From: Dehalococcoidia bacterium
GTDB lineage: Bacteria > Chloroflexota > Dehalococcoidia > DSTF01 > JACRBR01
Direction: 5' to 3'
NCBI GenBank assembly: GCA_041494685.1
Contig: JBGQBE010000033.1
Span: forward strand, 1 to 35,046
Length of the DNA: 35,046 nt
The notes beneath the pieces were generated by a model. The model was given only the letters and a program-made list of their open reading frames with translations, had not been told where the DNA came from and made no database searches. Made by a program: the position numbers and the translations under genes. Positions 9,153-35,046 of this stretch are shown one piece after another (within the stretch, counting starts at the first letter, position 1; every line of letters starts with the position of its first letter).

Positions 9153-10070
9153 ATGCCACCCAGGAAGCACGCCGCCGCACCGGAGCTGTCGCGGCTGAAG
9201 GTGCTGGCCGCGGCCGATCCGGCCGCGTTCCGCGACTACGCCATCGAGCTGCTGACATCCGGCGGCAGGCTGGCGCGCGAAGCCGCGCTCAGCGCGCTCG
9301 TCGAGCGGCCGCTGCCCGAGGCGCGCCCTGCCCTCCGGTCGCTCTACTTCGCGCTCGACCGCGACGGCCTCAAGCTCGACCAGGGCGCGCTCCAGCGCGT
9401 GCCCATCGTGCGCGTCCTCACCGCGCTCGGCGACACGCGCGACGCCGATGTCGCGGCGCGAGCGGCCAGCACGGTCGAGGTCGCGATGGGCGAGGACATC
9501 TCGTGGCAGCTGCGCGTGCTGGGGCTGCGACTTCTGGCGGACGTCGCGCCGGACCTGTTTCCCTACCTCGCCGTCGAGCACCTGGACGACTACGGCGGCA
9601 TCGACGGCGAGCCGGCGAACACGGCGTTCCAGTTGCTGGCGGGCACGGAGCACTACCTGCCGATCTACCAGTGGCTGATCTCCGGCGAGCGCGACCCGGC
9701 ACTCGTGGCTCCTGCGTTCGAGCTGCTGGGCGGAGCGCCGCAGGTCGTGGTACAACGCTACGTCACGCGCACCATGGAAGCGGCGATCCGGCGCAAGCAC
9801 GAGCCGCTCTGCACCGCGCTCGCCGAGGCGATCGTGCAGCGGGAGATCGAGGACGCGTACCCGGCACTGTCAGAACTGATGTTCGCGAAGCTGTCGGACG
9901 AGCTGTACAACTACCTCGCGGTGCTGCTCGCCGGCACGAACCGCGCGCCGTTGCTTGCGATCCTGGAAGACCAGCTGCACCGCGGCCGTTACCAGAAGGC
10001 CGTCGAGGCGGCGCTGCGCATCCGCACGACGCCGGAGCAGGCGGCCATCCTAAGGCGATGGGAGGAATAA
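9153..10070 (+). CDS. Hypothetical alpha-helical (HEAT-repeat-like) protein
   Basis: 305-aa Leu/Ala-rich amphipathic helices ('AREAALSAL', 'RVPIVRVLTALG'); codon usage matches neighbouring genes. Confidence 0.6.
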   Translation: MPPRKHAAAPELSRLKVLAAADPAAFRDYAIELLTSGGRLAREAALSALVERPLPEARPALRSLYFALDRDGLKLDQGALQRVPIVRVLTALGDTRDADVAARAASTVEVAMGEDISWQLRVLGLRLLADVAPDLFPYLAVEHLDDYGGIDGEPANTAFQLLAGTEHYLPIYQWLISGERDPALVAPAFELLGGAPQVVVQRYVTRTMEAAIRRKHEPLCTALAEAIVQREIEDAYPALSELMFAKLSDELYNYLAVLLAGTNRAPLLAILEDQLHRGRYQKAVEAALRIRTTPEQAAILRRWEE

Positions 10071-10178
10071 TCGGGCCTCTGCCGAGCCAGGTTCGCATGA
10101 GCAGATCAGGGGAATCGCCGCCTTGTCCGCGAGATGATGCCAATGGAGCCGGTTACTTCTGCGCTCCGATACCCCTGC

Positions 10179-11402
10179 ATGCTAAAGCGACACACGGCCT
10201 CTGCCCGTTCCCGATCACGCAGGACGTTCCGAGTATTGGCGGCGCTTGCCGCGGTCGCGCTGACGCTGCTCACCATGGGCAGCACCGTGCGCGCCGGGGC
10301 GCCGCCCAACCTGCCAAGCAACGTGCAACTGGAGCAGTGGGAGACGAAACCTGCCGGCAACTGGATCACCGGAAGTCTCAACGCCAACAACTCGGATTAC
10401 ATCGAGGGGCAGGTCGTGCCGTTTCGCCTCGTGATCCCGTCGAACATCGACGCCGGCTCGTACGGCTTCTCCGTCTGCCGCAATTACGAAGACGGCGAAC
10501 GCCGCGGATATCTCTTCCACGCGCCATTCAACACCGACCGAGCGGCCGATCCCGGCGGAACGATCGTCTCGACGCAGGATGGCTTTTCGGCGGTCAACGC
10601 AACGCTGGTGTCCGTGACGGACGTCGGCGGGCGGGGCGACTGCAAGGCGGGCGACCGCCAGGAGATCGTGTCCATCGAGAAGAACGCCGGCGCGGCGTAC
10701 GTGCTCTGGGGCGGCCACCTGGCCGCGCCTGACGATCCCGGCGTGGGCGCAGGCAACAGCGCCGCATTCTGGCCGGGCGCCAGCCTCCACATGAAGCTCA
10801 TGTCGCCATCCAAGGACGTCGCGATCCAGACGTGCACCGGGCTTGCCACTCCGACGCCAGGGATCACCTCAACCGCGGTGATCACCCCGCCCGCGACAAA
10901 CACGTCCGTCCCGCCGACGCACACCACGACGCCGCCTCCTTCGACCGATACACCAGTCGCGGCGACCGCCACGCAGCCACCCACGTCTACCAGCACGCCG
11001 GTGCCGCCCGCGACCGATACGCCGATACCGCCCGCGACCGAGACGCCGGCACCCGGAAACACTCCGACCGCCGCCGCGGCATCCGCAACGCCGGTGAACA
11101 CGGCGACGGCGACGCAGATCCCTTCCGGGTCGCAGACCACGAATACACCCGCTGCTGTCAGGACGCCGACGCCCACGTCCACCAGCGCGGCGGCGACGGC
11201 CACCCGCATCTCGGAGCAGGCGGCGGCCGGCATGCAGCCGCGCCAGCTTCCGAGCACCGGCACCTGCTCAACGGCGCCCGACGCCGGCACGCCGTGGCTG
11301 CCGCTCACGCTCGTGCTCGCCGCCCTCGTGATCGCCGGTACCGGCGCCGGGTTCTGGTTCGCCCAGCGCCGCAACGGCGGAAGTCCCGACGCTCACGCGT
11401 GA
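10179..11402 (+). CDS. Cell-surface protein: signal peptide, beta-rich domain, Pro/Thr linker, LPxTG sorting signal
   Basis: N-terminal signal ending TVRA; long P/T-rich linker; LPSTG followed by a hydrophobic TM and an RR tail. Start uncertain (10134 or 10179). Confidence 0.75.
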   Translation: MLKRHTASARSRSRRTFRVLAALAAVALTLLTMGSTVRAGAPPNLPSNVQLEQWETKPAGNWITGSLNANNSDYIEGQVVPFRLVIPSNIDAGSYGFSVCRNYEDGERRGYLFHAPFNTDRAADPGGTIVSTQDGFSAVNATLVSVTDVGGRGDCKAGDRQEIVSIEKNAGAAYVLWGGHLAAPDDPGVGAGNSAAFWPGASLHMKLMSPSKDVAIQTCTGLATPTPGITSTAVITPPATNTSVPPTHTTTPPPSTDTPVAATATQPPTSTSTPVPPATDTPIPPATETPAPGNTPTAAAASATPVNTATATQIPSGSQTTNTPAAVRTPTPTSTSAAATATRISEQAAAGMQPRQLPSTGTCSTAPDAGTPWLPLTLVLAALVIAGTGAGFWFAQRRNGGSPDAHA

Positions 11403-13965: not shown

Positions 13966-15542
13966 CCTCACGCCTGAGCGCGGTCGCGGGCACGCGGTTC
14001 GATGTCATCGTCATCGGCGGCGGCATCAACGGCGCAGGCGTCGCCCGGGAGGCGGCGCTGCACGGCTACCGCACGCTGCTCGTCGAGCGGCTGGACTTCG
14101 GGGCAGGCACGACGTCGCGGGCGACGCGGCTGATCCACGGCGGCCTGCGCTATCTGGAGCACGGTGAGTTCGGACTAGTGTACGAGTCGCTGGGCGAGCG
14201 CGAGACGCTGGTGCGCGACGAGCCGCACCTGGTGCGCCCGATGCGGCTGCTGGTGCCCGTGTACCGCGGCGACGCGCGGCCGCCGTGGAAGGTGCGCATT
14301 GGGCTGGCGCTCTACGACCTCCTCTCCTTCCGCAAGTCGCTGCCTCGCCACCGGGCGATGCCACCGGCCGCGATCGACGCCTACGAGCCCGGACTCAGCC
14401 GCGAGGGGCTACGGGCCGCCCACACCTTCTACGACGCGCAGGTGGAGTTTCCGGAGCGGCTCGTCGCCCAGTCGGTGCGCGACCTGACCGATGCGGGGGG
14501 CGTGGCGCTCAACCACGTCGCCGTGACGGCGCTGCGCTCGCCCGGCGGCGTGCTGCGAGCGCTGGCGCTGCGCGACGAGCTGACGGGCGAGACGGCGGAC
14601 GTCGAGACGACGGTGGCGGTGAACGCGACCGGCCCGTGGGTGGACGAGGTGCTGGCCGACAGCGACGCCGAGCGGCACGACCGGCTGATCGGCGGCACGA
14701 AGGGCAGCCACATCGTCGTCGAGTGGGCGGGCGGGCCGCGCCACGGCGTCTTCGCCTCGGCGCACGGGGACGGGCGGCCGTTCTTCATCCTCCCGTGGCA
14801 CCGCTACACGCTCATCGGCACGACGGACCTGCGCTACGACGGCGACCCGTCGCGGGCGCGCTGCACGCCTGAGGAGCTGCGCTATCTGCTCGACGAGGCG
14901 ACGCGGCTGTTCCCGGCGGCGCCCCTGGCGCGCGGCGACGTGCTGTACACGTACTGCGGCGTGCGGCCGCTGCCGTACACGCCGAACGGCGACGAGAGCA
15001 CGATCTCGCGCAGCCACTTCGTCATCGACCACGTGAAGCGCGGCGGGCCGAAGGGGCTGCTCTCGATCGTCGGCGGCAAGCTGACGACGTACCGCGCGCT
15101 GTCGCGCCTGGCGATGCCGGCGATCGCGAAGCACGCCTCCCCATCGGGCGCGACGGCACCGGCAACCGGCGCCTGGACGCCGCGCGCCGGTACCGTGCGC
15201 GACGACGACCCGCTGGCGCTGTACGGCGCGCGCGCAGCCGAGGTGCGCGCGCTCATCGCCGCGGACGCGTCGCTGGGCGCGCCGATCTGCGAGCACAACC
15301 CGGAACTGCTGGCGCAGGTGGCGTACGCGGTGGAGCGCGAGCAGGCGCTGACGCTGGCCGACGTGCTGCTGCGCCGGCTGCCGGCCGGCTGGAGCAAGTG
15401 CCACGCCCTGGACGGCGCGGAGCAGGCCGCCGCGGTCATGGCGCGCGACCTCGGATGGGACGCCGCCCGCATCGCGGCGGAGGTGGCCGCGTACGGGCGC
15501 GAACTGCGCGAGACGCTGGTACCGGTGGACGACATCGACTGA
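13962..15542 (+). CDS. glpD: FAD-dependent glycerol-3-phosphate dehydrogenase
   Basis: [39 protein letters not shown] and [12 protein letters not shown] overlap with glpK. Confidence 0.94.
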
Positions 15543-15554
15543 GCCACCCAGCGA

Positions 15555-15584
15555 TTGACGCCGGCTCAACCTCCACGTTACGAT
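15555..15584 (+). promoter_or_regulatory. Sigma70-like promoter TTGACG-N18-TACGAT for the erm-like unit
   Basis: Near-consensus hexamers just after the glpD stop. Confidence 0.55.
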
Positions 15585-15596
15585 GCGCCCACTTCG

Positions 15597-15629
15597 ATGA
15601 ATAACGCGATGATAAGGCTGCAACGCTAA
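15597..15629 (+). CDS. Putative erm leader peptide MNNAMIRLQR
   Basis: ATG AAT AAC GCG ATG ATA AGG CTG CAA CGC TAA, AT-richer than its surroundings, between the promoter and a series of hairpins. Confidence 0.45.
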   Translation: MNNAMIRLQR

Positions 15630-15630
15630 C

Positions 15631-15789
15631 GTCCGCCCCCGCGGCGGACCACCCGGCCGATCACACCGGCCGGGCTCACCTCCTGTCACAGGACTCGTAG
15701 TTACGTGCCTGCTGACGGCGTCGATGCCGCGCGCCTTCCGTGATCCTGCCGATCCTTCCGCGACATCGCGCCTCCAGCGGGCTGGAGGT
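15631..15789 (+). promoter_or_regulatory. Attenuator-like hairpins; the last one sequesters the SD of the erm-like gene
   Basis: Stems GTCCGCC/GGCGGAC (15631-15649), CCCGGCCG/CGGCCGGG (15652-15674), TCCTG/CAGGA (15681-15693), and CCTCCAG/CTGGAGG (15771-15788) covering GGAGG. Confidence 0.6.
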
Positions 15790-15794
15790 ACAGG

Positions 15795-16628
15795 ATGCGT
15801 CGCTCCGATCCCCGGGTCACCCACCGCCGAGCCGAACTCTCCCAGCACTTTCTGCGCGATGCGACCGTCGCGCGCGCGATCGTACGCCGGCTGCGGTTCT
15901 CGCCAGGCGATCTCGTCGTGGAGGCGGGAGCGGGCGACGGCCTGCTCACGGAGGCATTGGCCGACGCCGGATTCCGCGTCGTCGCTGTCGAGAAGGATGA
16001 GCGGCTGTCCGGCCCGCTGCGGCGGCGGCTCGCGGGCCGGCCGAACGTCGCCTGCCACCACGCCGACTTCCTGGCGTTCCAGCTGCCGTCGATCGCGTAC
16101 CGCGTCGTGTCGAACGTGCCGTACGGCATCACCGCTGCTGTCGTGCGCAAGCTGCTGCACGCCGCCCGACCGCCCGATGAGGCCATGCTCATCGTGCAGC
16201 GGGAGGCGGCCGAGAAGTTCGCCGGCACGCCGCGCGAGACGCTGTTCTCGCTGCTGCACAAGCCGTGGTTCGAGATCGGCGTCGCCGGCGCCGTGGCACG
16301 GCGGGACTTCGCGCCGCCGCCGCGCGTCCGCAGCGCGCTGCTGCGGATCCAGCGACGCGACGCGCCGCTCGTCGCCGGCGACAGCGCGGCGGCCTACCGC
16401 TCGTTTATCACGGCGGCGTTCGGGCACGGCGCGCCAGAGGTGTCGCACGCGCTTCGCCGCTACGTCACCGCGCGGCAGGTGAAGCGCCTCGGTCACGATC
16501 TCGGTTTCTCGCGCGATAGCCGTGCGTCGCAGCTCACCTTCGATCAGTGGCTGAGCATCTTCCGTTTCGTCGAGCACGAGTGCCTGGGCCACGATCCAAC
16601 GCGGCGGCACATCGCGGCCGTGGCTTGA
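15795..16628 (+). CDS. Erm-like 23S rRNA adenine-N6 methyltransferase
   Basis: SQHFL, VEAGAGDG, AVEKD, SNVPYGIT, F.PPPRV.S and C-terminal LTFDQWLSIF. The C-terminus and leader look more like Erm than KsgA. Confidence 0.75.
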   Translation: MRRSDPRVTHRRAELSQHFLRDATVARAIVRRLRFSPGDLVVEAGAGDGLLTEALADAGFRVVAVEKDERLSGPLRRRLAGRPNVACHHADFLAFQLPSIAYRVVSNVPYGITAAVVRKLLHAARPPDEAMLIVQREAAEKFAGTPRETLFSLLHKPWFEIGVAGAVARRDFAPPPRVRSALLRIQRRDAPLVAGDSAAAYRSFITAAFGHGAPEVSHALRRYVTARQVKRLGHDLGFSRDSRASQLTFDQWLSIFRFVEHECLGHDPTRRHIAAVA

Positions 16629-16679: not shown

Positions 16680-16713
16680 AGCAACCAGCGATCAGCGACG
16701 AGGCGACCAGCTA
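16680..16713. repeat. Degenerate heptamer tandem repeats (AGCAACC AGCGATC AGCGACG AGGCGACC AGCTA)
   Basis: Roughly 7-nt periodicity between convergent genes. Confidence 0.45.
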
Positions 16714-17601
16714 AAGCAGTATCTTCTTCGGTGCGCCGGAGGGCTGGCGGCGGAAGTTGTGGATCAGCCAGCGCTTGAAGCCGTCCGCCTCCACTTCCTC
16801 AAGGCGGGCGCGCGATGGCGCCGTCAGCGCCTGCTGGACGCGGGCGGCGTAGTCGGCGAACGACGCGTGCGTCTCCGGGGTGACGTTCAGCACGTCCGGC
16901 ATGTGGGCGGCGACGGCGATCTGGCGCTCGCAGAGGCGGATCAGCCAGCCGAACTCGATCTCCGCCCAGCCGACGTGGAACGCGGAGTCGGCGAACGCGT
17001 ATGCCAGGCGGACGTTGTTCGACTCCGCGCCGGTCTCCAGCAGGGTTGCGCCGAAGTTGGGGCGGCCCAGGTCGCTCGATGCGCGATAGACGAGCCGCAG
17101 CCCGTCGTCGGCGGCGAGCGTGCTGCCGGCGAAGTAGTGGCCCATGCCGACGTCGAACGCCTTGCGCTCCTCGTCCGGCTTCAGGTGACCCAGTAGCCAG
17201 CCGACGTACTCGCCCATCTCGTCATGCTGGACCTGGTGCTCCGCCGCGATCAGTTCGCAGGCCGAGCGGACGAGGTTCGGTACCGACACGTAGGAGCCGC
17301 GCGTGACGAGCAGGCAGGCGTCGGCGAGGGCGGAGTAGGCGCGCGACCAGGTGCTGACGACGGCGGCGTAGGCGTGCGTGCGATAGCGTGAGTGCGACGA
17401 GTCGTGCAGGATACGAAGTTGCAGGCCCATGCCCTCGGCGAAGAGGCGCAGGTCGTTGCCGAGCACGAACTGCGTCTGGCGGTACGCGTCGTGCGGCGCG
17501 GCGCCGGCGGCGTCGTCCGGCTTGCCGGGAAGCGCATACGCCTCCGGGAGGACGATGCCGCTGACGCGCTGTCCGGGTGTGGGGAGAGGCGGCTGCACCA
17601 C
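16711..17601 (-). CDS. Hypothetical helical protein
   Basis: Long ORF with coding-like codon bias. GTG start at 17601 or 17598 abuts the J-domain gene stop. The upstream part of the tracked ORF overlaps that gene and is probably not real. Confidence 0.65.
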   Translation of the reverse strand: MVQPPLPTPGQRVSGIVLPEAYALPGKPDDAAGAAPHDAYRQTQFVLGNDLRLFAEGMGLQLRILHDSSHSRYRTHAYAAVVSTWSRAYSALADACLLVTRGSYVSVPNLVRSACELIAAEHQVQHDEMGEYVGWLLGHLKPDEERKAFDVGMGHYFAGSTLAADDGLRLVYRASSDLGRPNFGATLLETGAESNNVRLAYAFADSAFHVGWAEIEFGWLIRLCERQIAVAAHMPDVLNVTPETHASFADYAARVQQALTAPSRARLEEVEADGFKRWLIHNFRRQPSGAPKKILL

Positions 17602-18302
17602 TACGCGCGCCTCACGGCCTTGCGGCGGCGCGGCGCCACATACGCGGTGTCGGTCGCGGCGTAGACGTTGCGGCGCTTCGCCTCGAAGCCAGTGATCTTC
17701 ACCGGCACCACGCCGGTCCAGTCCCGTGCGACGAAGATGACGCGGGACAGGCCCGGAAAGCGTACCTTCGGCCCCAGCACCTCGACCTCGAACTCCGCCG
17801 TCTCGCCCGGCGCGACGGTGATCCGCCCGACCGGCCCGCGCACCCACGGCTCGGACGTCGATACGACACCGGCGAGCGTGCAGGTGCAGCGGTTGGTGAC
17901 GCACACCTTGCGGCGCACGCGGGCGTCGCCGCGCAGCTCCGACATGTCGACTTCGATCTCGGCGGGCGCGATGTGCGGCTCCGGTGCGTGGACGTGAGGC
18001 GGGCGGGCGGCCGGCACGTGCTCGGCGACGACGTTCTCCCAGTCCTCGTTCTCCGCCCAGGCCTGGTAGCGGCGGGCGTCGCCGCGGCCCCGCGCGCCGT
18101 CGTAAGCGCGGCGGCGGTCGGCGTTACCCAGCGTCTCGAAGGCGTGGTTCAGACGCGCCGCCTTGCGGTTGGCGTCGGGGTCGGCCGTGTTGGCGTCGGG
18201 GTGGACTTGGCGCATCAGGCGGCGGTAAGAGCGCTTGATCTCGGCGTCCGACGCGTTGGGGGCCACCTGCAGCACCTGGTAGTAGTCGAGTTCACGGTCC
18301 AC
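17601..18302 (-). CDS. J-domain (DnaJ class C) protein with C-terminal Ig-like/BACON-like domain
   Basis: [39 protein letters not shown]-terminal beta-sandwich with 'TSEPWV'; GTG start at 18302. Confidence 0.85.
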
Positions 18303-29588: not shown

Positions 29589-32570
29589 CTACGCTGCGGC
29601 CTGTGCCGTCGTGGAGACCTCGGCCGTAATGGAGACGGCGTTGTCGAAGCGGCTGACCGACACGTAGCCGCCGAAGGCGTCGATAGCGAACTCTGCCTCT
29701 TTCAGCGGCGCGCCGTCGAACGGCGTGCCGTCGGTCTCGGACATGATGCTGAGCATCAGAAAGCCATCGGACTGCTTGAGCGAGCCTGATGCCTTCGAGG
29801 CGCCGGAGGCGCGGAGCGACCCCAGCGACAAGGTGATGAGCGCCTGCACGGCAGCACGGAGCGCCGGAGGCAGGTCCACGCCGCCTTCGTCCAGTTCGAT
29901 CGCCAGGCTCACGTCCATGGTGCCTGCGTAGAAGCCCCGGAGCGCTTCGATCGCGCCCGCGAGGTCGTCCGCCTCGTCCTGAGCGGGCGCAACGAACACA
30001 ACGGCGGCTGGCTCTTCTTCCGGCTTCGGATTGAACGTGCGCACGACCGGCGGAGCCAGCGGATCAGAGTCCTCAGCTTCGTCGTCCGCCTCGGACTCGG
30101 CGTCAGCTTCGGCGGCCGAGTCCGCGGCGCCGTCGTCTTCGGCGAGCGTGAACGTCTGGACGCCGACCGGCGGCACGGGAGCATCGCCAGCTTCGTCATC
30201 AGCACCAGCCACAGACTCGAGGTCGTCGAGCGGCTCGTCATCTTCGAGGTTCAACGCGATGTCGGGCGAGTACTCCGCTATCGGCGGCGCGGGCACCTCC
30301 GCCGTGACCGTCACCCGCGCGTCGCTCCGGCTGATGGCGACGAAGCCGGCAAACGCTTCGACGGCGAGGGTACTAGCAGCGACGTCGGAGCGGTCGAAGC
30401 GGCCGCTCGCCTTCTCGGAGGTGATCCCCGTGATGCGCAGCACAAGGAAATCGCCGTCGCGCTGGAGGGAGATCTCGCACTCCTCCGCCCCGGCGCCCTG
30501 CAGGCCGCGGGCCGCTTCCATCGCAAGGCGATAGAGCACGAGCCGCATGGCCGGGTCGATGCTGGAGCGGCCGGCGGAGGCGCCGATCGAGTCGGTCGTG
30601 GAGTCGATGTCGAGCGTGAAGTCCATCTCGCCCGCGAAGTTCTTGCGCAGGGCGCGCAGGGCTCCCGGCAGGCCGAGCCGGACGAGGCCGGGGTGCAACT
30701 CTTGGCCGATCGCCCGCAGCTCGTGGTCGCGGATCGCTTCCAACTCGGCAAGCACGTGCCGGTGCAGGTTCTGCGCTGCTTCGGCATCGACGGCGACAAG
30801 CTTGTACGCCTCGTCCATCTGTGTCGCGGCGATCAGCAGGCGCGCCTGGACCGTCTCGCGCAGACGTTCGGACAGCCGGGCGTTCCGCTCTTCATACGCT
30901 TCGATCAGGGTCAGCGCGTCGATATCCGGCGGCGGGGGCGCCGGGTGCGCCAACCGTGCGACAGGCGGAGCCATCGGCTCCGCAGCGATCCTGGGCTCGG
31001 CTTCGAGCTCGGGCTCGGGTTCCAAGGCGTGCGCGGGCGCCTGCGCGGAAGCTTCGACCTCCGCCGCCGCGGGGGGCTCATCAACCTCGCTCGCATCGGC
31101 TGCGGGCTCGGCCGAGCGAAACCCGCCCACTGGTCGCAGGCCCAGCTTCAGCATCACAGCGCCCAGCGCGATCGCGAGCACCACGGCGGCGATGGTGACG
31201 AGGCTTTGCTTGCCCATCGCCTGGTTGCTCTCGGCCTGGATGATCGACCAAGGGAGGCACGACGCCACGTTCAGCCCGTGGTCGATCGGGGAATCCTTGC
31301 CGATCGGCGCGAGACCGCAGATTGAATCTGTACCGGCGATATCGGCACGGATGCCGCCGTTGTCGACGGTCGCGCCGCGCCACGGATGGCCGAGGAGGGC
31401 GGCGGGCACACCGGCGGCGAACTGGCCGTTGCTGTTGATGATCACGTTGGTGCTTCCGTCCACCGAGGCAGCCAGCGTGGGCTTCCAGACGCGTGCAGGG
31501 TCGGCGCGGCCGATGAGGATGCCCCAGGCGGACCCGCTCGGGTCGCGGAGCGGCGTGGCGAACTCGATGTAGCCGGGCTTGCCGAGCTCCGGCAGAATGA
31601 TGTCGGAGTTCGCCGGTGACAGATTCGAGCGTGTGGAAACGAAGGTGGGGCTGTTCTGGACGCTCGTCACGGCAGGATCGGTGGTCGCGAGCACGAGTCC
31701 AGACCAGTCGACGATCGCCAGGGAGGCGAGCCGGTTGGTGTTGAGGTACAGCAGCTGCGTCATCGCGTCAAGCCGCGCGGACTGGCGGGCGTTCTTGTCG
31801 TGGACGGTCGGGTCGTTCGCGTAGCGCAGCATCTCGATGTAGCCGTCGAAGGCATCGCCCGTGCCGAGGGTGGCACTGTGCTGCGCGAACGAGGCCGCCT
31901 CGTTGACGGCACGTCGGTCGGCGGCGCGCTCGCTGAACTGCCGCGCGCCGTAGTAGGTGATGCCGGCCAGCAGCACCGCCACGATGATGACGGCGTTGAT
32001 CGCGGCGATCAGCGGCGAGGACCACAGGCGCGCGACGAGGTCGGGCGCGGTCGACGTACCGGGACTCGCCGCGGGCGTAGGCGACGGATCGCCGCTGAAG
32101 ACGGGGCGCAAGCGTGCCCGCAGCGAACTGAGCGCCTGGGCGGCGCGAACGCTGATGCGTCGCATCGCCGCACCTGCTGGAAGCTTCAGAGACGGAGCAG
32201 GAGCCGCCAGCACGGCGTCCGGCGCTGCCGCAGACTCGGTAGCGGCTTCATGGTCCGCTGCCGCTTCGTCGCTACCGGACGCGGCGCGGCGGGGCCGAAG
32301 CGATCCGATGCGGGCGAAGAGACGAGCGCTGATGCTCCGCAAGGAGATCCATGCCCCGGCAAGAGCCCGTGCGGCCCCCGGCTCAGACGGCGCCGCAGGC
32401 ACGTCAGCCGGCTCGGCAGCTTCGAAAGGGCGCGGATTGCGACGCGGCAGCTTCAGGGCAACCTTGGGCAACCCGAAACGCTTGCGGGTTCGACCGTCGC
32501 CGTTCTGCGACTGCTCGGGTGCTGTCCTTGCTCCCATATCGCCGTGTCTATGGTCGGTGCTGGCACCCAT
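29589..32570 (-). CDS. Membrane sensor pseudo-histidine kinase: 2 TM, Cache-like sensor, degenerate HisKA_3, two degenerate HATPase-like domains
   Basis: TM helices flank a Cache-like region (LAIVDWSGLVLATTD, IEFATPLRDPSGSAWGILIG, IINSNGQ); 'ELRAIGQELHPGLVRLGLPGAL' and 'LVLYRLAMEA' resemble NarX-type kinases; catalytic boxes are missing. Start uncertain. Confidence 0.72.
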   Translation of the reverse strand: MGASTDHRHGDMGARTAPEQSQNGDGRTRKRFGLPKVALKLPRRNPRPFEAAEPADVPAAPSEPGAARALAGAWISLRSISARLFARIGSLRPRRAASGSDEAAADHEAATESAAAPDAVLAAPAPSLKLPAGAAMRRISVRAAQALSSLRARLRPVFSGDPSPTPAASPGTSTAPDLVARLWSSPLIAAINAVIIVAVLLAGITYYGARQFSERAADRRAVNEAASFAQHSATLGTGDAFDGYIEMLRYANDPTVHDKNARQSARLDAMTQLLYLNTNRLASLAIVDWSGLVLATTDPAVTSVQNSPTFVSTRSNLSPANSDIILPELGKPGYIEFATPLRDPSGSAWGILIGRADPARVWKPTLAASVDGSTNVIINSNGQFAAGVPAALLGHPWRGATVDNGGIRADIAGTDSICGLAPIGKDSPIDHGLNVASCLPWSIIQAESNQAMGKQSLVTIAAVVLAIALGAVMLKLGLRPVGGFRSAEPAADASEVDEPPAAAEVEASAQAPAHALEPEPELEAEPRIAAEPMAPPVARLAHPAPPPPDIDALTLIEAYEERNARLSERLRETVQARLLIAATQMDEAYKLVAVDAEAAQNLHRHVLAELEAIRDHELRAIGQELHPGLVRLGLPGALRALRKNFAGEMDFTLDIDSTTDSIGASAGRSSIDPAMRLVLYRLAMEAARGLQGAGAEECEISLQRDGDFLVLRITGITSEKASGRFDRSDVAASTLAVEAFAGFVAISRSDARVTVTAEVPAPPIAEYSPDIALNLEDDEPLDDLESVAGADDEAGDAPVPPVGVQTFTLAEDDGAADSAAEADAESEADDEAEDSDPLAPPVVRTFNPKPEEEPAAVVFVAPAQDEADDLAGAIEALRGFYAGTMDVSLAIELDEGGVDLPPALRAAVQALITLSLGSLRASGASKASGSLKQSDGFLMLSIMSETDGTPFDGAPLKEAEFAIDAFGGYVSVSRFDNAVSITAEVSTTAQAAA

Positions 32571-32685
32571 GCGGCGGCAGGGGCAGAACCCCTATTTTCA
32601 GGTTCACGAGACGGCCAGGTGCGTGCGCGTCCGCGTGGCGCGGGGCGCGGACCGGGATCTGGAGCGAACGACGGGGAACTTACAA

Positions 32686-33396
32686 CTATGCGGCGCGGCG
32701 GCCGCGGGGTGCGTCTCCAGGGTCGGCGTCGCCGGAGCCCATGGTCTCCTGCAGGTACAGCAGGACGGCCTTTACGCGAGGGTGGGCCGCATTGTCGCGG
32801 CTCAGGTTCAGCTGCCCGAAGATGGCGTTGATGTGGTTCTCGACGGACTTCTCCTCGAGCACGAGCGACCGGGCGATGGCGGCGTTGTTGTAGCCCTTGG
32901 CCATCAGCGACAGCACTTCAAGCTGACGCTTGGTGAGCGCGGACAGCCGCGTCTCGCGGCGGCCGAGGCTCTCGACGACCAGCGGATCCAGCACCACGAG
33001 GCCCATCGCGGCGCCGTCGATGGCGCGGACGAGCGTGGCGACGTCCGTGACGGACTGGCGCAACAGATACGACCAGCCCGCGGCACGGAAGGCCGGCAGT
33101 GCGGCGAGCGTGCGGCGGTCCGGGTGCTCGCCCAGGAAGACGATGCGCGTGCTGGAGCGCGATCCGGAGATCGCCTGCGCCACGGCGAGGGCATTCTGCT
33201 CGTTCTCGGCATCGAGCCCGACGAGAGCGACGTCGGGCTTCTCCGCGCCGGCGATGCGGATCGCCTCGGCGGCGTCGCCGGTCGCGCCGGCCACCGCGAG
33301 GCCCGGCTGGGCGGCCAGCACGGTGCCCAGCATGTCGCGCAAGAGGCTGTCAGCCTCCACGACCAGGATGTTGATGCGGTTTTGTGAATCAGTCAT
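32686..33396 (-). CDS. NarL/LuxR-family response regulator with atypical receiver domain
   Basis: REC-like N-terminus (ILVVEADSLLRDML, PDVALVGL) and LuxR HTH (LTKRQLEVLSLMAKGYNNAAIARSL...VENHINAIFGQL). Confidence 0.9.
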   Translation of the reverse strand: MTDSQNRINILVVEADSLLRDMLGTVLAAQPGLAVAGATGDAAEAIRIAGAEKPDVALVGLDAENEQNALAVAQAISGSRSSTRIVFLGEHPDRRTLAALPAFRAAGWSYLLRQSVTDVATLVRAIDGAAMGLVVLDPLVVESLGRRETRLSALTKRQLEVLSLMAKGYNNAAIARSLVLEEKSVENHINAIFGQLNLSRDNAAHPRVKAVLLYLQETMGSGDADPGDAPRGRRAA

Positions 33397-33621
33397 ACCT
33401 ACGCCTTCGATTGTCGGCCGGCGCGGCATGCCGGACATACGGGAGTCCGCTGATTCTGCACCAGGGGATGCGAGCTGTGATGTTGCGCGTGGAGCGACCG
33501 CGATCCGAGGGCGGCGTACGGCAAACGCCTAGGAGAACCATAGATCTTGAGGGTGCGCCGCAGATTCGCGCTGGGTGCGGACACCCGGCCAAGTCGGGTG
33601 AACGCACCGTGCGAGAGAACC

Positions 33622-33636
33622 CCTAGGGAAACGAAC
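33622..33636. promoter_or_regulatory. Candidate operator/promoter motif CCTAGG-N3-ACGAAC, copy 1
   Basis: The same spaced motif recurs at 34459-34473 upstream of the second archaellin; a related CCTAGGAGAACC is at 33528. Confidence 0.4.
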
Positions 33637-33737
33637 ACCTATCCGTAAGGAACACGCCGGAACAAAAGCGGGCAGACGGGCGGTCCGCAGAGGCGGGAGA
33701 CGCCGGGCGATGAAGCACCCGGCAAGGAGGAGCGGTC

Positions 33738-34319
33738 ATGAAGCGGATCAGGGAATTCATCCGGAGGGTGCGGGAAGAGCGTGGGATCACAGGCCTGGAG
33801 ACGGCTATCGTCCTGATCGCCTTCGTGGTGGTCGCGGCGGTCTTCGCCTTCGTCGTGCTTAGCACCGGTCTCTTCAGCGCCGAGCGGAGCAAGGAGACAG
33901 TGTACGCCGGTCTGGCGAAGACCCGAGGCTCGATGGAGCTGACAGGCGGCGTGATCGCCGACTCGAACACGACCAAGATCCTGAACGTCAAGTTCGACCT
34001 GACGCTGGCGGCCGGCGGCGACGCGGTCAACCTGAACCCGCTGGACCCGTCGAACCGGACGGTGATCTCGTACATCGACAACAACTACGTGAACAGGAAC
34101 ATCGACTACACCACAACGGTGGTCACGGGGAACGCGGACAGCCTGCTGGAGCAGGGTGAGATGATCGAAGTCACGGTGGACTTCACCGCAGACCCCAGCA
34201 TCGTTATCACGACGAACAAGAACTTCACGCTGGAAGTGAAGCCGCCGTCGGGCTCGTACATGGTGATCCAGCGGACGACGCCGGCCTCCATCGGGCAGAG
34301 CGTGCTCGACCTCAACTAA
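33738..34319 (+). CDS. arlB: Archaellin (archaeal-type flagellin, ArlB/FlaB)
   Basis: Class III signal peptide REERG|ITGLETAIVLIAFVVVAAVFAFVVLSTG; C-terminal DSLLEQGE, FTLEVKPPSGS and terminal 'VLDLN' typical of archaellins; SD AGGAGG. Confidence 0.9.
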   Translation: MKRIREFIRRVREERGITGLETAIVLIAFVVVAAVFAFVVLSTGLFSAERSKETVYAGLAKTRGSMELTGGVIADSNTTKILNVKFDLTLAAGGDAVNLNPLDPSNRTVISYIDNNYVNRNIDYTTTVVTGNADSLLEQGEMIEVTVDFTADPSIVITTNKNFTLEVKPPSGSYMVIQRTTPASIGQSVLDLN

Positions 34320-34378
34320 GGCTTCATCGCACGGAGGGGGCAGGGACGCCGCCTCCGACTCCCTACAAGCATGTTTTC

Positions 34379-34422
34379 AGGCACAGACACCCGCTCCGGA
34401 ACCGGAGCGGGTGTCTGTGCCT
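34379..34422. repeat. Perfect 21-bp inverted repeat between the archaellin genes
   Basis: AGGCACAGACACCCGCTCCGG-AA-CCGGAGCGGGTGTCTGTGCCT. Confidence 0.85.
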
Positions 34423-34458
34423 AGAAGGGATCGGGGGCGCTCACCGTGCTCGTAATCA

Positions 34459-34473
34459 CCTAGGCGCACGAAC
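34459..34473. promoter_or_regulatory. Candidate operator/promoter motif CCTAGG-N3-ACGAAC, copy 2
   Basis: Matches 33622-33636; sits inside a CACCTA-N13-TAGGTG dyad (34457-34481). Confidence 0.4.
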
Positions 34474-34728
34474 CTTAGGTGGTACACGGAGGTATCGGGA
34501 TTCCCCCGCATGGAGTCGCGCAGTTCTGGTCCCCGGGCGTGGTCGCTTTCGGGTGTCAGACGACCGGGAAACGGCGGAGTAGCGCGACCAGGCCTGAGAG
34601 CTACACGGACAGGCTTCACGCGCTTCATGCGAAGGAGGTGGCACGCAGGGCAACGTACCGTTCCGGAGGGAGGCCTCACCCTGAAACAGTGAGGCGGGGA
34701 GTATCCAACCGATTCTGGAGGAACAACG

Positions 34729-35046
34729 ATGAAGCGCATCATGCAATTCGTGCGCAAGGCGCGCGAGGAGCGCGGTATCACCGGCCTGGAGACGGCCATC
34801 GTCCTGATCGCCTTCGTGGTGGTCGCGGCGGTGTTCGCCTTCGTGGTCTTGAGCACTGGTCTCTTCAGCTCAGAGCGAGGCAAGGAGACCGTCTACGCGG
34901 GTCTGGCGAAGACCCGTGGCTCGATGGAGCTGACGGGCGGCGTCATCGCCAAGGGCAACACGACGAAGCTGAACACCGTCATGTTCGACCTGACGCTGGC
35001 CGCCGGCGGCGACCAGGTCAACCTGGACAACTCGAACGCGACCAAC
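34729..35046 (+). CDS. arlB: Second archaellin (ArlB/FlaB), truncated by the window end
   Basis: Manual translation MKRIMQFVRKAREERG|ITGLETAIVLIAFVVVAAVFAFVVLSTGLFSSERGKETVYAGLAKTRGSMELTGGVIAKGNTTKLNTVMFDLTLAAGGDQVNLDNSNATN; SD GGAGG. Confidence 0.9.
   Translation, partial: MKRIMQFVRKAREERGITGLETAIVLIAFVVVAAVFAFVVLSTGLFSSERGKETVYAGLAKTRGSMELTGGVIAKGNTTKLNTVMFDLTLAAGGDQVNLDNSNATN

Follow-up and report, generated by a model that had tools for sequence, protein, structure and literature searches.

Two tandem archaellin genes at the end of a bacterial contig

The DNA analysed here, referred to as the window, is the whole of contig JBGQBE010000033.1 (C33; 35,046 nt) from a Dehalococcoidia bacterium of the phylum Chloroflexota (GenBank assembly GCA_041494685.1). 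The metagenome-assembled genome (MAG; G000) has 87 contigs, a size of 3.29 Mb, a G+C content of 68% and a completeness of 97.6%. The right-hand end of the window carries two archaellin (arlB) genes, which are very probably the first members of a tandem arlB array belonging to a complete, horizontally acquired Dehalococcoidia archaellum. The open reading frame (ORF) list of the window places both on the same strand, in tandem:

33738..34319, plus strand: arlB1, a complete pre-archaellin of 193 aa with a 16-residue basic leader, a hydrophobic helix and a beta-sandwich head
34729..35046, plus strand: arlB2, a second archaellin gene truncated at the contig end, with its N-terminal 106 codons present

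A previous reading made from the sequence alone (the sequence-only reading) had proposed that both genes encode archaellins with a class III signal peptide, and the profile search that it suggested bore this out. With the Pfam family Arch_flagellin (PF01917; cut-off 29.5 bits), ArlB1 scored 97.2 bits and covered profile positions 1-161 of 162, and the partial ArlB2 scored 73.7 bits and covered positions 1-88. Both proteins also matched TIGR02537 (archaellin/type IV pilin N-terminal domain) at 36-38 bits (ArlB1, 36.2) against a cut-off of 20. No bacterial pilin family (N-methylation motif or Flp) in Pfam was matched by either protein at E<=1, and the remaining Pfam matches were all below threshold (DUF4244 at 14.8 bits, TpcC and Synaptobrevin). 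With Arch_flagellin as the sole significant family, a pilin reading of ArlB1 and ArlB2 was ruled out. The leader and helix read MKRIREFIRRVREERG, then the cleavage point, then ITGLETAIVLIAFVVVAAVFAF, and a glycine directly followed by ITGLETAIVLIAFVVVAAVFAF is present in both window genes. Cleavage of ArlB1 is predicted between G16 and I17, as for a class III signal peptide. In an alignment of 25 archaellin copies from 8 genomes, G16 (position -1), T18, G19, L20 and E21 were invariant.

All eight sequence matches to ArlB1 in the PDB were flagellin or archaellin chains. The best was 9i5h, the bacterial archaellum of Litorilinea aerophila (E 1.1e-39, residues 17-189), whose chain starts at an Ile aligned with I17 of ArlB1. 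An AlphaFold2 model of ArlB1 built from the 25-sequence alignment (mean predicted local distance difference test score 81.9) consists of a helix at residues 19-63 followed by eight strands in a beta-sandwich. When the model was searched with Foldseek, each of the listed ranks 1-17 was an archaellin or archaeal flagellin structure, and 9i5h headed the list (E 1.2e-14, 48% identity). At the level of sequence and predicted structure, 33738-34319 and 34729-35046 were thereby confirmed as genuine archaellins, not pilins. ArlB1 carries three N-x-S/T sequons. No STT3/AglB was found over cut-off in the genome (best 23.1 bits against 24.5), which fits the O-glycosylation reported for L. aerophila (PMC12488501).

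As the sequence-only reading had noted, the archaellin genes are contiguous with bacterial core genes. The window encodes rpsB, tsf, a pyrH-type kinase, frr, uppS, cdsA, rseP, ispG, glpK, eno, an xerD-type recombinase, uvrC and an MrfA-type helicase. The host-like, GC-rich codon usage and bacterial Shine-Dalgarno sequences that it described were likewise found: the G+C content at third codon positions (GC3) of the arl genes is 0.81-0.95, compared with a genome mean of 0.877 (standard deviation 0.064, 1617 long ORFs), and GGAGG-type Shine-Dalgarno sequences precede the start codons of both arlB1 and arlB2. The arl sequence is host-adapted. Its host-like GC3 fits the old transfer inferred by Sivabalasarma et al. 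(Nat Microbiol 2025; PMC12488501) and, with it, the old, ameliorated transfer proposed from the window alone.

The array probably continues on a second contig

In the closed chromosome of a relative (G001) and in two further relatives, the regulator gene that lies next to the archaellins is followed by five, five or three arlB copies, a coiled-coil gene, arlG, arlF and arlJ, and then by a small acidic gene, Amidase_3, PfkB and SIS. This order is that of the end of the window joined to the start of contig C51 of the MAG, which places C51 directly after the window. C51 encodes:

C51 1-135: archaellin tail, last 44 codons, identical to the end of arlB4 at 127 of 135 nt
C51 357-944: arlB3 (PF01917)
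C51 1365-1952: arlB4 (PF01917)
C51 2030-2734: coiled-coil and Pro-rich protein of 234 aa, with no family match
C51 2816-3268: ArlG-like protein, with weak ArlG and PF01917 matches
C51 3276-3788: ArlF-like protein, with weak ArlF matches
C51 3802-5397: ArlJ (NF004703, 456.7 bits)
C51 5410-5823: acidic protein of 137 aa, with no family match
C51 5831-6847: Amidase_3 (Pfam, 113 bits)

Within the helix-coding stretch, 117-134 of 150 nt are identical between arlB copies of the array, and unbroken matches reach 45 nt, as between arlB2 and arlB4. We attribute the assembly break at the end of the window to this near-repeat. Contig depth is about 3-fold higher over 34732-35046, and the end of C33 was found to have no direct overlap of 15-60 nt with the ends of other contigs. 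In a tree of the archaellins, arlB1 joined the copies that stand first in the arrays of two relatives (support 99/98), and the middle copies clustered within genomes. This suggests that the first archaellin is distinct and possibly the major one.

The sequence-only reading had asked whether 33400-33740 might be a chimeric join. The junction between the regulator and arlB1 was bridged over 33280-33836 by contigs of four sequencing runs, with 0-2 differences:

X1: 32600-33836, 0 differences; possibly the source sample, in which case the independent runs number three
X2: 33280-33841
X3: 32816-33841
X4: 33245-33836

All four contigs end where the repeated N-terminal coding stretch begins. An orthologue of the regulator also lies beside the first arlB in three close relatives, and a 32% identical homologue is placed likewise in a distant Dehalococcoidia locus (L049). 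The regulator-archaellin junction is not chimeric; a chimeric assembly was ruled out by the bridging contigs and by this adjacency in relatives.

Further archaellum components encoded in the genome

The genome contains seven Arch_flagellin-type matches. A satellite gene, the fifth arlB (C27:10411-11134), lies between rpmA/rplU-like and FtsH-like ORFs (names read from the translations). In the metal-site motif of its product, Asp is replaced by Asn (GNANQLLEPGE).

The sequence-only reading had named arlH, arlI, arlJ and a prepilin peptidase among the genes to look for; arlH, arlI, arlJ and a Peptidase_A24 gene were found. ArlJ matched NF004703 with E 8e-137, a score under the 570-bit equivalog cut-off of that model. 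ArlH and ArlI are encoded on contig C19. ArlH scored 263.6 bits with NF004723 (cut-off 194) and matched FlaH 4yds (E 3.7e-32), and ArlI scored 636 bits with the archaellum-motor equivalog NF058587 (cut-off 550). The best PDB match of ArlI was FlaI 4ii7 (E 7e-127), compared with E 1.5e-43 for CpaF. The ArlG-like protein reached 31.6 bits with PF01917 (cut-off 29.5) and 32.2 bits with NF052591 (cut-off 110); the ArlF-like protein reached 23.9 bits with NF052590 (cut-off 110) and 19.3 bits with FlaF_Ig-like (cut-off 28.4). Their genes sit between the coiled-coil gene and arlJ, and this order is kept in 8/8 relatives' loci containing arlJ. The coiled-coil protein, which occupies the position of ArlCDE, had no Pfam match at E<=10, and the comparison of its profile with the Bathyarchaeal positional equivalents (Arch_fla_DE-like) was not significant (E 0.21).

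The sole Peptidase_A24 gene of the genome is on C20 and encodes 249 aa with that domain only. The genome also has two Tad-type pilus loci (C9 and C10) and a cheW-cheA-cheC-cheD-cheY-cheB operon (C2), and no match to Flagellin_N or FHIPEP (FlhA) was found in it. All arl components are open frames without internal stops.

Relatives of the ArlI of this genome are encoded in 34 loci, the 25 closest at 74-87% identity. These 25 and one at 54% come from MAGs titled Dehalococcoidia, Chloroflexota or 'Chloroflexia'. The next relatives, at 45-47%, are from Bathyarchaeia, together with one 'Acidiferrales' contig of archaeal-looking gene order. Among 93 species genomes of the same GTDB order, ArlI was over its curated cut-off in 62, from all five families (62/92 without the unpublished G028, whose ArlI matches do not exceed the cut-off). 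The statement in the sequence-only reading that archaella are known from some Chloroflexota is thus in line with the titles of these relatives, and the phenomenon was published in 2023 and 2025.

Motor genes are split from the archaellin array

The arlH-arlI pair on C19 is flanked by CoA-ligase and DUF1786 genes on one side and by a thiolase gene on the other. In the closed chromosome of G001, the genes for ArlI (at about 0.057 Mb) and ArlJ (at 1.63 Mb) are separated by about 1.57 Mb. Across the relatives, three layouts were distinguished:

Layout 1 (L020-L038 and L044; 20 loci, ArlI identity >=77%): arlH-arlI alone, with no arlB or arlJ in the stretch around the pair, up to 10 kb on each side where the contig allows
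Layout 2 (L039, L040, L042 and L043; 4 loci, ArlI 74-77%): a single locus of two divergent units, amidase<arlJ<arlF<arlG<coiled-coil<arlB<arlB<kinase-like gene, then arlH>arlI>acidic gene
Layout 3 (L049; 1 locus, ArlI 54%): canonical, with the regulator on the opposite strand, then arlB, coiled-coil, arlG, arlF, arlH, arlI, arlJ and an acidic gene

A fifth locus in the 74-77% band (L041) is too short to tell its layout. From its sequence, the machine of the present genome appears to be encoded in two places, the arlB array-coiled-coil-arlG-arlF-arlJ unit (end of C33 plus C51) and arlH-arlI, with the satellite arlB at a third. The expectation of the sequence-only reading that the rest of the cluster would lie just beyond the window therefore held, by synteny, for further arlB copies, arlG, arlF and arlJ; it did not hold for arlH-arlI, which are separate.

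Candidate promoters and regulators of the archaellum genes

The following features lie around arlB1:

29589..32570, minus strand: 993-aa membrane protein with a sensor-kinase-like core (residues 554-759 match the MctS kinase core)
32686..33438, minus strand: NarL/LuxR-type response regulator, divergent from arlB1 (GerE 45.4 bits, Response_reg 26.9 bits)
33573..33608: two inverted-repeat boxes GGGTG-N4-CACC at 23-bp spacing, a candidate operator of putative function
33623..33647, plus strand: promoter-like block CTAGGGAAACGAAC-N4-ATCCGTA, which precedes the start codon of arlB1 by about 90-115 nt
34374..34428, plus strand: stem-loop just 3' of arlB1 that lacks a T-run, a candidate terminator or attenuator

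All four close genomes have box 2 in the relaxed form RGGTG-N4-CACC (AGGTG in G003) at an equivalent site before the first arlB, and three of the four retain box 1, whose 3' arm varies. The motif GGGTG-N4-CACC has 37 strand-wise matches genome-wide, so by itself it is weak evidence. The promoter-like block is conserved in all four close genomes, the flanking intergenic DNA having diverged, and the full block occurs once in the genome. It departs from the sigma-28 consensus, with CTAGGG, a 13-nt spacer and TCCGTAAG. No sigma-70-type promoter match was found in 33300-35046.

The sigma-28 consensus of E. coli is TAAAGTTT-n11-GCCGATAA (PMC2859248), and the sigma-28 (FliA/WhiG) promoter architecture was tested here as TAAA-N15-GCCGATAA. 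Upstream of arlH, this genome and 12 relatives carry GGGTGCGCGCACC, then TA(A/C)AT, a spacer and GCCGACA; on C19 (34486-34524) the perfect palindrome GGGTGCGCGCACC is fused to a sigma-28-like TACAT-N14-GTCGATAT. The arlH promoter motif TA[AC]A-N15-[GT][CT]CGA[CTG]A was present in 15 of 27 loci (our own and 26 others), always with a spacing of 15, and a GGGT[GA]-N4-CACC palindrome abuts the arlH promoter in 17 of the 27. The satellite arlB has the upstream motif CTAAAG-N14-GCCGACAA. A further match near the consensus, TAAAG-N14-GCCGATAC (C9:22660-22685), lies 13 nt before cpaB (C9:22699-23598; RcpC, 74 bits). The cpaB gene opens a Tad locus and was not used in defining the pattern. A gene for an ECF-type sigma factor is directly upstream of the cpaB motif.

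The strict sigma-28-like pattern occurs five times in the genome, three of them just upstream of arlH, the satellite arlB and cpaB. In three relatives, matches to the strict pattern precede both arlH and cpaB (2 of 4, 2 of 6 and 2 of 4). The pattern was not enriched over a reversed-pattern control in these relatives (4, 6 and 4 matches against 5, 8 and 2); since the counts equal those of the control, only the placement of the motif is informative. The genome has two FliA/WhiG-family sigma factors, encoded at C4:79162-79839 and C52:10552-11223; with the cut-off at 189.6 bits, the two scores were 190.8 and 182.5. Such a sigma factor was found in 90/93 genomes of the order, with or without ArlI (62/93), and at this near-universal frequency its co-occurrence with the archaellum is uninformative. 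About 3.3 kb from a FliA/WhiG-type sigma gene lies a CsrA homologue with an 80-aa N-terminal extension (C4:75401-75856, that is L069:3401-3856, minus strand) that scored just below cut-off at 62.7 bits; no FliW partner for it was found in the genome.

The best NCBIfam matches of the response regulator were MadR, NarL and MctR, all below their cut-offs. In the closed chromosome of one relative, the NarL-type regulator beside arlB aligns in two pieces one base apart (L057:7619-8357), which suggests a frameshift or a long-read consensus error. The 993-aa protein matched the MctS kinase core at 36 bits (E 2.1e-9), far under cut-off, and Pfam dCache_1 weakly (E 0.24). A homologue lies beside the archaellin array in seven relatives' loci (L039, L040, L042, L043, L057, L058 and L059), and the 993-aa protein is the probable partner of the NarL-type regulator.

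The stem-loop behind arlB1 has a minimum free energy of -49.8 kcal/mol and a z-score of -8.64, and none of 200 shuffled sequences folded as well. No Rfam family reached its gathering score in the arlB regions, the only matches being sub-threshold, miRNA-like and on the hairpin. The 410-420-nt spacers before arlB2 (34320-34728) and arlB4 (C51:945-1364) share conserved blocks, for example GCGCGACCARGCCTGAG and GCGAAGGAGGTG, which also occur in a relative's spacers. These spacers may be a long structured leader, or hold a second ribosome or CsrA-type site.

Proteins encoded next to the motor genes

A second acidic protein is encoded after arlI:

C19:37371-37715: acidic protein of 114 aa, starting MAFGKKK, with no family match

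The families of acidic proteins encoded after arlI (18 sequences) and after arlJ (6 sequences) matched each other over 44 C-terminal columns (probability 95%, E 3.5e-8). These paralogues share a C-terminal motif, and nearly all of the homologues end in Ala-Ala. The 91-aa acidic protein encoded after arlJ in L049 gave a weaker match (probability 50%, E 1.6e-4). The 114-aa family comprises 68 database clusters, all unnamed or 'hypothetical', the named ones being from Dehalococcoidia. Against the PDB, neither profile gave a significant match (after arlI, one at E 0.71; after arlJ, none). A resemblance between the 114-aa type and the N-terminus of a Bathyarchaeal protein was a mere 9-column GKKK match (E 0.049) and was dropped.

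The Amidase_3 gene, encoding an N-acetylmuramoyl-L-alanine amidase, follows the arlJ unit here and in seven relatives' loci. Its family and position make it a candidate helper that would remodel peptidoglycan where the machine passes through the bacterial wall.

Comparison with known archaella and flagellar promoters

Archaella have already been reported from more than 240 Chloroflexota genomes, and swimming was shown for L. aerophila (Sivabalasarma et al., PMC12488501). A published phylogeny places Dehalococcoidia ArlI and ArlJ within the archaellum clade. ArlB1 aligns with the L. aerophila archaellin over its whole mature length, and in both the mature N-terminus (predicted for ArlB1) is Ile after Gly. 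Of the metal ligands reported for the L. aerophila archaellin (D121, D127, E131 and E134; PMC12488501), D127, E131 and E134 align with D, E and E of ArlB1, as read from the PDB alignment, whereas D121 falls in a 5-residue deletion of ArlB1. The present system also shares with L. aerophila and other Chloroflexota archaella an arl2-type order (arlG before arlF), a bacterial-type A24 peptidase outside the locus, Tad loci, and the lack of flagellar genes and of CheF, which is described as absent in Chloroflexota (PMC12488501). In contrast to the single locus published for Chloroflexota, arlJ follows arlF here and arlH-arlI are elsewhere. No pilN, pilO or LysM neighbours, as in the published Chloroflexota archaella, were seen here, and Amidase_3 follows the operon instead. 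The hosts differ as well, an uncultured sediment Dehalococcoidia here and a thermophilic member of the Caldilineales in the case of L. aerophila.

The SAR202 bacterium 'Candidatus Lucifugimonas marina' (Lim et al., Nat Commun 2023; PMC10444878) has a single cluster, in which flaGFHIJ come after six flaB genes in tandem. This bacterium is like the present genome in belonging to the class Dehalococcoidia, in having tandem flaB/arlB genes with scattered extra copies, and in its Peptidase_A24 candidate. Unlike in SAR202 as described there, H and I are detached here, and besides the one satellite there are at least four copies in the array. The core of ArlB, ArlG, ArlF, ArlH, ArlI and ArlJ is that of archaeal arl2-type loci, such as that of Sulfolobus acidocaldarius (FlaI 4ii7, FlaH 4yds, FlaF/FlaG 5tug). 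Unlike those, the present locus has a bacterial host, candidate promoters of bacterial type and bacterial Shine-Dalgarno sequences, and is split; no ArlX or ArlCDE was detectable and no STT3/AglB was over cut-off.

The sequence TA(A/C)A-N15-G(C/T)CGA(C/T)A upstream of arlH resembles the class 3 flagellar promoters of sigma-28 (FliA/SigD/WhiG) described in PMC2859248. Unlike those, this candidate promoter type belongs to a bacterium that lacks flagella, and it precedes filament genes of archaeal and Tad type. On the sigma factor or promoter wiring of the archaellum, we found nothing relevant in the main text of PMC12488501, its supplements aside, or in bioRxiv 10.64898/2026.05.11.724246, and a literature search returned no paper joining archaellum, Chloroflexota and sigma factor.

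Interpretation of the locus

Collectively, these results make it very probable that the window genes open the arlB array of a complete archaellum acquired by horizontal transfer. The family membership of each component, gene order, conservation in relatives and the integrity of the junction are direct observations. In such a machine, the pre-archaellins would bear their short basic class III leader until the single membrane Peptidase_A24 of the genome removed it after Gly16. At the ArlJ platform, the ArlI ATPase would then work with ArlH to build the mature subunits into a filament. ArlF and ArlG would act as the stator, and ATP hydrolysis would rotate the filament, leading to swimming.

Several points weigh against this reading. 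The NCBIfam matches of ArlF and ArlG are weak (24-32 bits against a cut-off of 110). ArlCDE, ArlX and CheF were not detectable in the genome with Pfam (no Arch_fla_DE match at E<=1, no CheF-arch match at E<=0.001), which leaves the link from the motor to chemotaxis unexplained. The single A24 peptidase could equally serve the two Tad loci only. The 2025 survey states that all genes of the machinery 'remain within one locus' (PMC12488501, section 7), and this lineage departs from that rule; with a split locus, MacSyFinder-type rules might call the archaellum system incomplete. The join of C33 to C51 is deduced from synteny and matching cut-off genes, not from a spanning read. Among RNA runs, none was listed as containing this stretch. 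Expression of the archaellum is predicted from the genes, as are its processing, assembly and motility.

Some of these points would also suit a non-rotating, archaeal-type type IV pilus for adhesion, namely the undetected ArlCDE, ArlX and CheF families and the low scores of ArlF and ArlG, and the genome has two Tad-type loci, one Tad operon having the same promoter type. Such a pilus is nevertheless quite improbable. ArlH is present, ArlI is above the cut-off of the archaellum-motor equivalog and resembles FlaI far more than CpaF, the closest filament of known structure is an archaellum proven to drive swimming (PMC12488501, section 9), and the ArlG/ArlF-like stator genes keep their order in each of the eight relatives' loci that contain arlJ. 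Slightly less probable again is a decaying relic, in which intact genes would no longer give a working machine because the locus has been broken apart. The detachment of arlH-arlI and the failure to find adaptor families are what such decay might produce; set against them are components that are all open frames free of internal stops, a stand-alone arlH-arlI in all 20 loci with ArlI identity >=77%, the promoter block conserved upstream of arlH in 15/27 loci, and the conservation among genomes of the first-copy arlB lineage, its upstream block and the operator-like boxes. An artefact of assembly or binning, with archaeal DNA joined to a bacterial contig, might be suspected in an 87-contig MAG whose window ends inside the second archaellin, but it is effectively refuted by the contigs of four runs (perhaps three of them independent) across the junction, the adjacency of regulator and arlB in the closed chromosome of G001 and in two more relatives, the host-like GC3 and the presence of ArlI in 62/93 species of the order.

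As an encoder of an archaellum, the present organism adds one more uncultured Dehalococcoidia genome to those known, with no conceptual change. The question of interest is how a machine from another domain plugs into bacterial control and envelope biology. On this question bear the split locus, which contradicts the 2025 survey, the sigma-28-type promoters with a shared palindrome, the NarL-type system beside the array, and the peptidoglycan amidase and two acidic proteins that travel with the motor genes. These features go unmentioned in the texts searched. One reading of these features, possible but on balance doubtful, is that the imported archaeal motor was rewired into a bacterial motility/adhesion regulon and then broken into separate loci. 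In that reading, a sigma-28 (FliA/WhiG)-type promoter would be common to arlH-arlI, the satellite arlB and the Tad operon, and the GGGTG-N4-CACC sequences on the arlH and arlB1 promoters may be read by the NarL-type two-component system, which would co-regulate both halves of the machine. The lineage-specific acidic paralogues, with their conserved C-terminal helix motif of the type VDxDDLLEDLxTxAAAL, could be new motor accessories and may provide a link between CheY and the archaellum that replaces CheF. The motif may resemble the CheY-binding peptides of FliM and CheZ. Relative to published accounts (the main text of PMC12488501, whose supplements may list split systems or this very genome), the only leads that go further are the separation of arlH-arlI from the array, the candidate sigma-28-type wiring in common with Tad pili, and the pair of acidic proteins.

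Additional observations

The 9.4-kb contig titled Candidatus Acidiferrales bacterium (L045) carries arlB, arlG, arlH, arlI and arlJ in archaeal order, with ArlI at 47% identity. It is probably a misbinned archaeal contig, not an Acidobacteriota archaellum. Within the window, the ORFs at 9153-10070, 10134-11402, 14409-16610 and 16711-17904 had no Pfam match at E<=1e-5. Under a filter for host-like codon-position composition, 10134-11402 and 14409-16610 failed and may not be genes, and 9153-10070 and 16711-17904 passed.

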